Origin: Octopus vulgaris
Lineage: Eukaryota
Length of the DNA: 64,000 nucleotides
Assembly: GCA_951406725.2 (NCBI GenBank)
Contig: OX597815.1
Span: 166,594,001-166,658,000, forward strand
Direction: 5' to 3'
Below, piece by piece: positions 2,363 to 55,707 of the stretch (the first letter of the stretch is position 1; every line of letters begins with the position of its first letter). The translations under genes were made by a program, and so were the position numbers. The notes under the pieces were generated by a model, which was not told the DNA's origin, searched no databases, and was given only the letters and a program-made list of their open reading frames with translations.

Positions 2363-2780
2363 TAAGGCGGCGAGGTGGCAGAATCGTCAGCACGCCGGGC
2401 GAAATGCTTAGCGGTATTTCGTCTGCCGCTACGTCCTGAGTTCAAATTCCACCGAGGTCGACTTTGCCTTTCATCCTTTCGGGGTCGATTAAATAAGTAC
2501 CAGTTACACACTGGAGTCTATGTAATCGATTTAATCCCTTTGTCTGTCCTTGTTTGTCCCCTCTGTGTTTAGCCTCTTGTGGGCAGTAAAGAAATAGATA
2601 TTTCGTCTGCCGTTACGCTCTGAGTTCAAATTCCACCGAGGTCGACTTTGCCTTTCATCCTTTCGGGGGTCGATAAATTAAGTACCAGTTACACACTGGG
2701 GTCGATGTAATCGACTTAATCCCTTTGTTTGTCCTTGTTTGTCCCCTCTATGTTTTGCCCCTTGTGGGTAATAAAGAAAT
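2363..2780 (+). mobile_element. Dimeric family-1 SINE with TSD
   Basis: tRNA-like head (tggcagaatcgt...gagttcaaattcc), body repeated twice; flanks atatataactctcat (2348-2362) / atatacaactctcat (2781-2795). Confidence 0.85.
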
Positions 2781-3111
2781 ATATACAACTCTCATCAACT
2801 TTACAGAAACCGAAATTATGAGCATTTTGAGCTAGGAAGATTATACGTGAACCTATGGGGGCCTTAAATATATAAGCAGTTCTGATTTTTAAATAGGAAT
2901 AATGTATTATCTGGCGAAAATTGGTTGACATCTAGTTTACAAATTATAACAGTTACGCGTTGCTTAGATTGGTAGCTTAATTGTAGAAACGAAAATATTG
3001 GTAGACACGGAATGGTCCGGCAATAATATCTACATGACAGTTACTAACGAGAAGAGAATTTTTATTGGTAACCATAAACAAAGTGTTATAGCAGGAATGT
3101 GAAATAATAAA

Positions 3112-3167
<56 letters not shown>

Positions 3168-4475
3168 ATTAAAGTGGTTGGGGGTAGAAAATAAAGGAGA
3201 AGCAAATTAAGGATTCCACTGGAGCCAATAAACAGAAACTTAAATCATTCCCCAGATATTGTTCATTTGGAATGAATGAAACTCAAGTGAAAGAGGAAAC
3301 CTTTTACAATTTAGTTTCTAATATCGCTACTGCAGTGTTATCCGCGATGTCACATCACGCTCATAAAAATGAAAAATCATTAAGGGACCCGCCACATGAT
3401 CGCACAGCTTACCAGAAATACCAGCCAAATCTCAACACATCACACTCGAACCAACTAAAAAATAGGGAAGATACATTGGATAATATAGTCTTCAATATAA
3501 AGTTAAAACAGGATGGTCACGGTTGGAATGCTTTTGATCAAAATTCTCTTCGATTAGAGATGACATGGATGAAAATGCTACAGATATTACAACGTTTTAA
3601 ACCAATATTATTAAAGAGTTAAAGGAAAATTAACTCAAGCGGGAACTGAACTTGGAAAATAAGCTATACTTGGCGACTGGCTCGTGCAATAAAATCTTCA
3701 AAGAGAAAACAACATGAGTTACAGAAGAATAACAGATTTCACCCTCAAAACTACCACAGGCTGGACATGTCATAGCAGACAGATGGCGTATAACTTAAGC
3801 TTTTTAGTTTTGGCAATTGGTCGATGACGATTGTGGTGGTAATGGGGATAGCAATAAAATGGAAATCGTGCGAGATAGATAAACAAATAGAGAGAAAAAA
3901 AAATGTGTGGCAGAAGAAAATAGGGGTAATTATTGATGTGGATAACGAAAAGTAAATAGCGAAACGGATGAATGCATATCGAAGCGAGGTGGATAACTGT
4001 CAAGTCTTTTATACTGGTTTCAAATTTTAACCTGTATAAAACCCGAAAGTATTGTGAAGAGTGCAGTTTACCTGAATGGTAAATAATCTGGAAAGTGAAG
4101 CCAGTGAACCGTTTGTATTGTGGTAATTTGATAGTCGCTTAGTTTTTACACCCCAGAGGAGCCCTATTTAACCTATATCCTATTAACTTAAAAGCTTTCA
4201 ATAACTATTATATTTAGCCTTTTTTTATATTATCAACAATTTTATATAATCGCTACTATACTCATAAAAAAAGAGCTGGTACTTATTTTCTTCTAATCTC
4301 CTGCAGTATAAGACTCTTGAAGGTGATCGTCTTACATTTGCGTCTGTTGCCATGCTTTGTCTATGAGTTAGAAAATTCCTCATGGTATGCCATTTTGGTA
4401 ATGTGTAAATTTACAAATAAAATTTGGTAAGAGAAGAAGGAATCGGAAAAAATGGTAGAATGCTGCACTAAATAT

Positions 4476-6780: not shown

Positions 6781-8305
6781 ATTACTCAAATACGTTACTT
6801 TCTTAAACTTGACCGATTTCGAATTTACTGTGTTTTGTATGTTTCTGAGTTGAATATTTAGTTTCACTTGTTTAAGTTCGCCCAAGTTATTGTTATTGAA
6901 TAGAACTATTGTCAAAGGTATTTAAGTCGTAATGTATTTCACCCTTTTCGGGTATTGCAGATTCAGACTGGTATTATTTGAAAGAAATTTAGCGGCTATT
7001 TTCAACAGGTGAGGCGACTACGTTGAGGCCTTTTCATTGGCTGGCGTTGTGAATAAGTATCACATCTTAAATCGCGTGTCTCTCTGGGCAATTGGAAAAC
7101 ACTGATGTGTATCGATTCGTAAAAGACCTTGTCGAATCTTTGTCTATCTAGTTAAAAGGAATTATATTCGGTTCGATGCTTGATTTATCACTAAATGCTT
7201 TTTTTTTCAGACCGAGAAAATCATGAACCTTAAATCTAAGGCCTTTTTTCTTCTTTTACTAAGTGGAATTTTGTGGTTGGGACGTTCACCTCGTGTTCTT
7301 AATGTCGTGTGTTCAATGCATAGACTATGCATTGTATTCTTGAGCAAGGCACTTCTTTTTACGTAATTTCAATCTACGCTGCTGTAAATGAGTATCAAAC
7401 AGGTTCCGGTGCAACACTCTCCTTCCAGTCGCCATCCCGCTGTCAACCATTGCTTGACAACCGGTGTTTGTTTACGTTCCCGTAACTTAGCGGTTCGGCA
7501 AAAGTACCCGATAGAATAAGTGCCAGATTTAAAAAAAGTACTGGAATCGATTTTTCGACCAAAATTCCTTCATGACGGTGCCCCTGCATGGCCATGGTCT
7601 AATGACTGAAACAAACGAAGTAGTAAGGATAAAAGTAATGTCAACGGTGCAAATAACAAGTTCTAGCTTTAATGTTCATACAATCCGAAGTTCAACACTT
7701 TATTGTTTTTCAGATCAGTCCTGGGTCATGTTGATTTTCATCAAATCAAGATCAATAAGATTAAAAATATATAATTGATGACGTTATAAGAATATATCAT
7801 CTTCGAGAAAAAACAAATAAAGCTATAGATAGTAGCGTGTAAATATTGGGTTAAAAGAAGGAAATCGAAGATTGTCCGAGGGACGTGAACGAGTATCTCC
7901 CGAAGGTATAGCAAACGTTTTACCATTAGGACAAAGCAACCTCTTGATTTACCCCGTCTCTTGAAGGAACTTTATTCTTACTTGCAAGAACTGTTTGTTG
8001 TTGACGTCATGTGAATTTATAAACTGCGAGTGAACGTAAAACAATTCAATTTTTGGAATAGTGGATCTCGAAGCAAATAAAGCAGCTATAATAATTGGGC
8101 TAATTGAGTCGATTATACCTCACCGCTATAAAATTGACGCAGTGTTTAATCACCGGATCTATGGTTTATAAAAGAAAGACATTAGAAATGATATATTGGT
8201 GTCTCACTTTTTTGTAAGATAGTATTTTGCCAGGAACAACTTTTTCAGACGTTGGTATCGGCACAGAAAGAGTCGACAGTACAGTGGGTTCGATTCAATA
8301 GTCAC

Positions 8306-17187: not shown

Positions 17188-17800
17188 GGCGGCGAGCTAG
17201 CAGAATCGTAAGCATGCCGGGAGAAATGATTAGCGCTATTTTGTCTATCTTTACGTTCTGAGTTCAAATTCCGCCGAGTTCGACTTTGCCTTTCATCCTT
17301 TTGGGGTCGATTAAATAAGTACCAGTTACGCACTGGGATCGATGTAATCGACTTAATCCGTTTGTCTGTCCTTGTGTGTCCCCTCTGTGTTTAGCTCCTT
17401 GTGAGTAGTAAGAAAAAAGGTATTTCGTCTGTCTTTATGTTCTGAATTCAAATTACACAGAGGTCGACTTTGCCTTTCATCCTTTCGGGGTCGATTAAAT
17501 AAGTGCCAGTTACGCACTGGGGTCGATATAATCGACTTAATCCGTTTGTCTGTCCTTGTTTGTCCCCTCTGTATTCAGCTCCTTGTAGGCAGTAAAGAAA
17601 TAAGGAAACGTTAGCACATCGGGAGAAATGTTTAGCGCTATTTTGTCTATCTTTACGTTCTCAGTTCAAACCCGCCGAGGTCGACTTTGCTGTTCATCCT
17701 TTCGGGGTCGATAAATTAAGTACTAGTTGCAGACTGGTATCGATCTAATCGACAGGTCCCCTCCTCCAAAATTTCGGGCCTTGTGCCTGGAGTAGAAAAT
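17188..17800 (+). mobile_element. Multimeric family-1 SINE (three body units)
   Basis: Three consecutive gttcaaa..ccg/cagagg..tcgactttgc...ggggtcgat units. Confidence 0.85.
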
Positions 17801-54022: not shown

Positions 54023-54092
<70 letters not shown>

Positions 54093-54230
54093 CGGAGATG
54101 TACTCGCATAGCAAGTGATTTGATCTGAGATCGTGTGCTGGAACGAAAATAATTGCAGCGTGGAAGGTGTTTGTAAGCCACTTAAGAAACACACAAAAGC
54201 CGTTCGATTCACTTCAACATCTAAGTTTAA

Positions 54231-54280
54231 TTTGTCAAAATATTTTCGTCGCTAAAATCCGCGACCTGTTCACTGACAAA
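54231..54280 (-). ncRNA. Minimal type-I hammerhead ribozyme-like motif, G3-C8 core variant
   Basis: UUUGUCA-GUGAACA-G-GUCGC(GGAUUUUA)GCGAC-GAA-AAUAUU-U-UGACAAA: perfect 7-bp stem I, 5-bp stem II, palindromic stem III. Confidence 0.75.
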
Positions 54281-54300
54281 AATCCGTGCTAAGAGATAAA

Positions 54301-54334
<34 letters not shown>

Positions 54335-54575
54335 TTTATCTCTTACCTGTTTCAGTCATTAGACTGTGACCATGCAGGGGCACCGCCCTAAAGGGTTCTT
54401 ACTCTCAGAAATCAACTCCAGGACTTAAATTTTTAAAAATCTGGTACCTATCCTATCAGTTTCTTTTGCCGAATCGCTAATTCAGGTGAACGTAAGCACA
54501 CCAACTCCGGTTGTCGAGCGGTAGTGGTGGGGTGAAACACAGATAGAAAGACACACACGCATACACACACACATA

Positions 54576-55707
54576 CAGGGTGCGGTGAATAAACTGTTTA
54601 AATTATGCAAAAATGAAAATAACACTGGCATCTCATTTTTAATAGATATATTAACCAAAATTACATAAAAGTACCTTGAAATACTAAGGAGTAAATTTAT
54701 TCAATAAAATCGCCATTGGCTTCAACTACAGCTTCCAGACGACTTCCGAATCTCCTGCAGTTCTTCTGGACAGTTTCCTTGCTTAAATTGGCGAATGCAG
54801 CCATAATCCTTACCTTCAGGTCATCTTTGGTGTTACAAGGTGTTTTGTTGGTCTCTCGCTCAACTACACCCCACACATAATAACCAAGGGGGTTGCAGTC
54901 TGGGGAGTTAGGTGGCTAAATGTTAAGGGTGATGTGGTCGCAGAAATTCTCTGAGAGCCATGATTGGGTTCTCCTGCTTCTTTGGCATGACGCAGAGTCC
55001 TGTTGCCAAAGAGGGTCTTCCAGCAGCCACCCTCTTGCCCCACGGCAGCACTGCCTCCTCCAAGCACTTGATGTAGGACTCCGTGTTGAGTGTGAGGCTA
55101 TGTGGGAAGATAAGGCGGCGAGCTGGCAGAAACGTTAGCACGCCGGGCGAAATGCTTAGCGGTATTTCGTCTGCGTTATGTTGTGAGTCTAAATTCCGCC
55201 GAGGTCGACTTTGCCTTTCATCCTTTCGGGGTCGATAAATTAAGTACCAGTTACGCACTGGGGTCGATGTAATCGACTTAATACCTATGTCTGTCCTTGT
55301 TTGTCCCCTCTGTGTTTAGCCCCTTGTGGGTAATAAAGAAATAGGTATGTGGGAAGATGAATGGAGGCATAACGTCGCTATCACTAGTGACCACTCCAAA
55401 CACCATGATGTTGACTGGCTGTTTGATTTCTATGGCTCTCAGTACATGTCCTCAGATTGCACTGTCCTTTGATTGACACCTAAACACTCTGAAATGTTTG
55501 TATTGGAGCTTCCGGTGCGAATGCCGAGCAGTACAGCGTGTCGTTTCCAAATTTCTGGTAGAGTGAATTGCGTCATGATGCAGTTTTCCTCACAGTCGGT
55601 GCCCAACTGACCTTACTATACTGTGTAGTCGACAAAATCAAAAACAAACAATGCATATGCACGAAAAAAAGAATATAAAATGGTGACAATTTACCCATCG
55701 CACCCTG
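54576..55707 (-). mobile_element. Decayed Tc1/mariner transposon, DD37D (maT)-type, with a nested SINE
   Basis: TIRs cagggtgcg.tg..taaa.tgt at both ends, TA TSD; transposase remnant IMVFGVVTSD..MPPFIF / WQQDSASC...PPNSPDCNPLGYYVWG with 37 residues between the second D and the (mutated) third catalytic position. Confidence 0.88.
55112..55345 (+). mobile_element. Full-length family-1 SINE with 13-bp TSD
   Basis: TSD tatgtgggaagat at 55099-55111 and 55346-55358 interrupts the transposase at IFPH. Confidence 0.92.

Follow-up and report, generated by a model that had tools for sequence, protein, structure and literature searches.

The stretch of DNA analysed here, called the window, comprises 64,000 nt from Octopus vulgaris (contig OX597815.1, positions 166,594,001 to 166,658,000, forward strand). 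An octopus host also follows from a protein attributed by its source to Octopus vulgaris, which this genome encodes with 100% identity. On its minus strand it carries a solo pLTR of a Penelope-like element (PLE) family, designated family F, which lies between a TA microsatellite and a palindromic junction and contains a minimal hammerhead motif upstream of the first codons of the parental open reading frame (Table 1).

Table 1. Features of the solo pLTR and its junctions; coordinates are those of the window.
Feature	Position	Strand	Description
Solo pLTR of family F PLE, long (tailed) form	54091..54290	minus	repeat positions +7 to about +206
Minimal type I hammerhead motif	54231..54280	minus	stem I 7 bp, stem II 5 bp, palindromic stem III
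Core	54266..54273	minus	G3 = 54273, C8 = 54268, A9, extra G before stem II
Palindromic stem III and U17	54237..54244	minus	predicted scissile bond 54238/54237, inferred from hammerhead numbering
First 30 codons of parent RT-endonuclease ORF	54092..54181	minus	ORF of locus L098 opens with the same peptide
PLE tail	54091..54151	minus	about 60 nt between short and long 3′ end; ends of 101 arms
(TA)31.5 microsatellite at 3′ junction, likely target	54028..54090		TA-rich microsatellite at the end of 56 of 101 arms
5′ junction, 56-bp palindrome	54290..54345		13-bp inverted copy of neighbouring repeat's end around (AT)15

The window copy differs from a genomic copy at another locus (L013) by 3 substitutions over 197 nt, and the start codon of the parental ORF is mutated in it from ATG to GTG. 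It is a single monomer, with no tandem hammerhead units and no inverted partner arm, and the window contains neither a second copy of the element nor any similarity that we could find between it and the neighbouring repeat. This repeat (54333–54577) is abundant, with more than ten diverged copies (65–80%) in the window that often end at TA repeats, and its first 13 bp are duplicated in inverted orientation at the 5′ junction of the pLTR. A further common repeat, about 185 bp long, occurs as a dimer at 2415–2785 and again at 17237–17605.

Read on the minus strand, stem I pairs positions 54280–54274 with 54237–54231 (7 bp) and is followed by the core GUGAACA (54273–54267), by a single extra G at 54266 that was absent from the initial annotation, and by a 5-bp stem II with an 8-nt loop, and then GAA; the palindrome AAUAUU spans 54244–54239, with U17 at 54238 completing a UUU triplet. 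The three stems, the exact flip of the 3–8 pair and the UUU cleavage triplet proposed in that annotation were all confirmed, and the (TA)n tract, placed there about 140 nt away, starts 147 nt downstream of the predicted cut. The motif shows G10.1–C11.1 and A15.1–U16.1 in addition to helices I and II and the palindromic helix III. The literal CUGANGA box is not matched at G3 and C8, whereas U4, G5, A6, A9 and GAAA are kept; a Watson–Crick 3–8 pair is nevertheless found, as G–C in family F and as C–G in the sister families S and T described below, and U17 of the NUH cleavage triplet occurs in all 66 parsable family F copies. Folding of the 61-nt hammerhead piece gave z = −3.2, with 2 of 200 shuffles equally good, whereas the whole 205-nt element folded no better than its shuffles (z = −0.75). 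Rfam yielded no match at gathering score in the whole window; a descriptor allowing any Watson–Crick 3–8 pair matched twice on the two strands, and the motif at 54231–54280 is the better paired of the two, in agreement with its earlier description as the best-paired motif of the window.

The element had been taken for an orphan, which it is not: a DNA search of its own genome returned 1,939 candidates, the 40 scored ones having 97–100% identity, and a pattern of 19 letters that allowed any base at positions 3, 7, and 8 had 6,656 genome matches (3,363 + 3,293) vs. 1 (0 + 1) for a control pattern. The search for copies and for a parent PLE suggested in the initial annotation thus succeeded on both counts. 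An anchor sequence downstream of the ribozyme matched 9,435 times. Among the first 100 pattern matches, 92 contained GUGAACA, 94 contained G3–C8 and none contained C3–G8, which was likewise absent from the 100 listed G8 copies. Additionally, G3–C8 occurred in 64 of the 66 ribozymes that could be parsed among 101 anchor-chosen arms (the other 35 were truncated or too changed), and all other core bases were kept, each in at least 61 of the 66. The family F element also occurs in other organisms (labels B, C, and D).

Copies of family F with G8 gave 131 matches, and 99 of the 100 listed are G3–G8. A single contig (C16) accounts for 34 of the first 100, mostly with one loop II variant, and this cluster is probably a segmental amplification. 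An intermediate subfamily was considered for the G3–G8 copies: 30 of them showed no diagnostic sites of their own, with a divergence of 4.8 vs. 4.1%, and point mutants suffice to account for them. A possible older G3–C8 family with a sister-type loop had only 7 matches, which were decayed. Within family F, the majority base differs between two subfamilies at 11 sites, four in loop II and none in core or stems, a pattern of little weight when taken alone.

Two sister families in the same genome retain the canonical 3–8 pair. Family S, which shares 55% amino-acid identity with family F over about 800 residues, has a C3–G8 hammerhead located 135 nt upstream of its ATG; many of its copies (L199–L228, e.g., L204:184–4119) are about 99% identical and have open frames of 1,310–1,312 codons, so that the family looks very young, and position 9 is C in the hammerhead type most frequent in this family and A in other copies. 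Family T (L259–L269) displays a canonical C3–G8–A9 core, a wobble-palindromic helix III and C17; tblastn found no parent ORF in 14 short loci, and by eye its downstream DNA resembles the leader of family S. A splice-donor-like motif, GTAAGT, occurs 25–45 nt upstream of the hammerhead in S (L204:30–40) and T and is absent there in F. A pattern excluding G3 had 5,872 matches, and C3–G8 was present in 88 of the first 100, from S and T.

For the comparison, 10 rows were picked by hand from F, S, and T, and the structure was derived from the same sequences. Both sides had changed in 6 of the 13 pairs, including the 3–8 pair, one pair of stem II and pair 15.2–16.2, with compensatory changes falling in three helices, and 93% of the cells were paired vs. 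27–55% in slid controls; because only three related lineages are involved, this covariation amounts to few events, and the existence of G3–G8 copies in family F speaks against it. Judged on these alignments, the G3–C8 flip is a natural covariation, since the sister families carry C3–G8 in the same frame and there are further compensatory changes in the stems.

Some copies of the repeat extend on their upstream side across a branch-point-like motif and microsatellite-rich DNA and reach an ORF that closes with RT, thumb and endonuclease, and two loci (L047 and L061) join the repeat to an RT-endonuclease ORF. The most complete arrangement is that of L097, where pLTR (3726–3924), ORF, 3′ UTR and a second pLTR (7987–8182) form a unit of 4,261 bp, preceded by a partial tandem and an inverted copy; direct pLTR repeats are seen in L097 and L098. 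The parental unit is about 4.26 kb, with a microsatellite-rich 3′ UTR of about 1 kb or more. In the parental unit the hammerhead precedes the ATG by 92 nt. In L098, the ORF begins at an ATG inside the 200-bp block, and its first peptide is shared with the window copy; contrary to the earlier reading that there was no ORF nearby, positions 54181–54092 are codons 1–30 of the parental ORF with its altered start. The 1,025-aa open frame of L096 is a single ORF containing the RT, with RYVDD at 640 and a DKG motif, followed by a C-terminal GIY-YIG domain (Pfam, residues 915–1005, E 1.8e-5); the match to RVT_1 is weak (E 0.07). A CxxxCxxC linker at 896 separates RT and endonuclease, and the latter contains a CCHH motif, with two Cys between VY and YIG and His at 949 and 965–970. 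These motifs make the parent a PLE of the C-terminal EN+ kind and, by such definitions as the accessible part of PMC8557442 provides, probably one of the Neptune or Nematis type. The 200-bp stretch is the terminal repeat of an autonomous-type PLE, standing alone at most loci. In a duplicated region, two family F insertions (L099:rc 1603–2907 and L100:rc 2489–3214) have paralogous genes for C2H2 zinc-finger arrays as neighbours.

A census of copy ends was made on the loci of the first 100 anchor matches on contig C1, which contain 101 arms. Their 3′ ends fall at two sites, short (+143 to +156, 43 arms) and long (+198 to +212, 52 arms), with 6 elsewhere and none beyond the long site. The two sites are about 60 nt apart, both inside the start of the ORF, and they bound a tail of about 60 bp present at one end only; the end points of family S are homologous. 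A TA-rich microsatellite adjoins 56 of the 101 arm ends, and several non-TA loci show, by eye, target duplications of 7–12 bp. Inverted partial (5′-truncated) arms occur beside the 5′ end in 14 of 30 loci, two of them reaching the long end. The 101 arms include 21 head-to-head pairs, 19 long with short and 2 long with another end, although independent events are fewer than 21 because five pairs share one junction. An identical inverted F junction also recurs in eight loci (L112, L114, L147, L148, L150, L151, L154, and L198), most of which share the downstream flank as well, and it thus represents one insertion re-amplified inside another repeat or duplication.

These ends can be read against the anole PLE, for which the available part of PMC11167929 describes a protein that acts on both strands of AT-rich DNA, cutting and extending them, and an RT that starts at two internal sites bounding the tail. 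By analogy, family F would insert in the same way: its RT would prime at nicked AT-rich DNA and begin to copy from one of the two sites within the RNA, and priming on both target strands, one per site, would produce the head-to-head pairs of long and short arms. We hold this account, priming from two internal sites and on both strands, with good confidence.

The 5′ ends pile up around +1, with 45 of the 101 arms starting at −7 to +6, 24 at +7 to +20, 19 at +21 to +50 and 5 at +51 to +60; 8 run upstream. The predicted ribozyme cut lies at +60, and just 2 arms start at +57 to +60, both inside inverted junctions, indicating that the RNA copied into the integrated cDNAs had not been cut. Among copies that reach +1 and have no element sequence upstream of it, a G stands before +1 in 23 of 43 distinct junctions, at a place where the element itself has C (p 1.6e-7 vs. 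18%), and the same was seen in 18 of 31 junctions of a smaller set; the base outside this extra G is random (T8 A7 C7 G1). In many of these junctions the G can also be read as part of an inverted arm or of a target duplication. In family S the extra G was not seen, and the 5′ ends cluster no more than loosely (8 of 27 at −59 to −74).

Whether the G3–C8 hammerhead cuts has to be weighed against these uncut templates. In favor of activity, the swap is exactly compensatory and the core is otherwise intact. According to the portion of PMC11167929 at hand, engineering C3G and G8C together rescues a PLE hammerhead in part, and a G3–C8 variant is mentioned as active, with “data not shown,” in the accessible text of PMC3884650. 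Against activity, minimal PLE hammerheads cut poorly in vitro (PMC4209133), and in the predicted fold of the monomer, stem I is extended by a G3–U17 wobble, which would trap the cut site. Helix III is also unstable: the monomer pays 5.4 kcal/mol for closing A15.1–U16.1, and a duplex of the 6-bp palindrome by itself amounts to only −0.2 kcal/mol. As far as the sequence allows, the hammerhead is likely still self-cutting, if weakly, and we rather favor an active but slow ribozyme in which the AAUAUU palindromes of two RNA copies would pair to form helix III. A possible, though doubtful, alternative is that the ribozyme is dead or nearly so and that its fold is kept for protein binding, translation control or RNA dimerization, or simply by hitch-hiking. 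The uncut templates, with 2 arms among the 101 beginning close to the cut, and the G3–U17 trap are in keeping with this alternative, as are the many long open ORFs of the youngest S subfamily despite its C9 and, in the consulted part of PMC11167929, insertion of the anole PLE in vitro without need for cleavage and the lack of RNA-seq ends at the site. However, an exact two-base tertiary swap, the other core bases conserved in at least 61 of 66 copies and compensation in three helices are as expected under selection on the catalytic fold.

The position of the 5′ ends raises a separate question. Reverse transcriptases are able to copy the cap. Most solo copies could be complete cDNAs of the first 145–205 nt of the mRNA, copied from RNA uncut by the ribozyme and run to a capped start at +1; such cDNAs, with a cap-copied G, would explain both the 5′ pile-up and the extra G, and we lean slightly toward this explanation. 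A literature search for cap-derived G in PLEs found nothing relevant. Alternatively, though this is rather unlikely, the pile-up could mark a splice acceptor and not a transcription start, since CTAAC, a pyrimidine tract and AG immediately precede +3. The branch-point-like and acceptor motif is found in L008, L013, L015, L016, L023, and L030, and in Drosophila virilis the Penelope intron ends at helix I (PMC4209133, PMC2377424). Nevertheless, an upstream exon would share several letters before the junction, whereas only one G is common and the next base is random; there is no GAG|GT donor in L097, and the one in L013 would predict G at the next place. Likewise, four contig sets presumed to be RNA (from three studies) contain no joint to this site, a weak argument given that upstream repeats were skipped. 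Some PLE families retain a spliceosomal intron; in family F the acceptor-like motif was seen, but neither a fitting donor in L097 and L013 nor a joint in the presumed RNA, and copying to the cap is our preferred reading.

The initial annotation suggested a third family of mini-elements, which stands as regards its multicopy, hammerhead-shaped nature but not its independence, because the unit is the terminal repeat of a PLE, although 93 of the 101 arms lack upstream element sequence. It is very improbable that we are dealing with an independent non-autonomous mini-element or retrozyme family, copying as a 200-nt unit or as a circle. That solo copies predominate among the 101 arms would fit such a family, as would a tandem array of 16 short units at one locus (L065) and a pLTR depth far above that of the ORF in the contigs presumed to be RNA. 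Conversely, the unit matches the pLTR of full elements at 95–98% identity and contains codons of the ORF, copy ends do not coincide with the ribozyme cut, no inserted copy extends beyond the long end (0 of 101), and the array has one repeated junction, as expected from amplification at the DNA level; pLTR identity, ORF codons and end positions largely refute this candidate. In the four contig sets presumed to be RNA, strand, start and cut are unreadable, and host read-through explains the deep coverage of the pLTR. The array itself (L065:2903–5594, contig C28) consists of short pLTR units of 167–177 bp, each with a hammerhead and with TA repeats between them; its layout is retrozyme-like, 7 of the 16 units are changed in stem I, and it is the only tandem array of F among the loci fetched. 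Finally, a chance resemblance to a hammerhead, to which the second match of the loose descriptor in the window and the lack of an Rfam score might point, is scarcely credible and was discarded on comparison with the sister families, which have canonical cores at the homologous position upstream of the ATG, plus covariation.

Together, these results make it very probable that the window contains a solo pLTR of a PLE with a Neptune/Nematis-type linker, whose family-wide G3–C8 hammerhead likely keeps a weak self-cleavage assisted by dimerization or by protein. More tentatively, and with less conviction, this could be the first natural, lineage-fixed, active G3–C8 hammerhead, reached by two transversions via an unpaired state, in a PLE whose dimeric RT primes both target strands, one from each internal RNA site, and copies uncut RNA to the cap. 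If true, solo pLTRs would be complete cDNAs of the mRNA 5′ end and not random truncations, and thousands of solo ends would record the mechanism.

As PLE ends go, the element is ordinary; what is unusual is its core variant, fixed in the family, and it offers a useful record of how PLEs insert. Hammerheads in PLE ends were already known; a natural 3–8 swap beside canonical sister families in one genome gives evolutionary support to selection on the catalytic fold in PLEs, even though the integration templates look uncut. Because of the flip, screens based on CUGANGA miss whole families of thousands of copies. Additionally, the two start sites, the inverted pairs of long and short arms and the sharp 5′ limit are in vivo counterparts to an in vitro mechanism so far shown for one PLE.

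Hammerheads in pLTRs with an extra nucleotide and a palindromic helix III, mostly solitary, have been described (PMC4209133). Family F shares with them the pLTR location, the short palindromic helix III, the extra nucleotide between 9 and 10.1, G10.1–C11.1 and the mostly solitary copies, but it has G3–C8 instead of C3–G8 or U3–A8, a G as extra nucleotide where their consensus is H, and a longer, 7-bp helix I. Natural U3–A8 core variants (Perreault et al., 2011, PMC3088659, as far as the part available to us describes them) are likewise compensatory changes at the 3–8 pair; they need two transitions, whereas G3–C8 takes two transversions and is a fixed state shared by thousands of copies. In the literature we found only engineered swaps and natural U3–A8, in a search that reached some, though not all, of the pertinent variant surveys.

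The anole Poseidon PLE (Frangieh et al., 2024, PMC11167929, from the sections accessible) also has a pLTR overlapping the ORF start, two end points bounding a tail, AT-rich targets and a hammerhead near the ATG. In contrast to it, family F has a linker zinc-finger motif, a tail of about 60 bp, a hammerhead upstream of the ATG and not overlapping it, and a 3/8 swap that is natural instead of engineered. Non-LTR retrozymes (PMC7229834; bioRxiv 10.64898/2026.07.22.740005, both considered through the excerpts available) share short hammerhead units related to PLE pLTRs, to which the single 16-unit F array can be likened, whereas the copy in the window stands as a single unit, is bounded by ends of the PLE insertion type and includes ORF codons. 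In protein architecture and insertion pattern there is a likeness to Neptune and Nematis (Craig et al., 2021), for which the accessible part of PMC8557442 gives an RT, a CX2-5CxxC linker, GIY-YIG with CCHH, a (TA)n bias and tandem plus inverted insertions, all shared with family F; the likeness is one of motifs and insertion layout, and family F differs in its long microsatellite-rich 3′ UTR and in a tail of about 60 bp vs. 30–40 bp.
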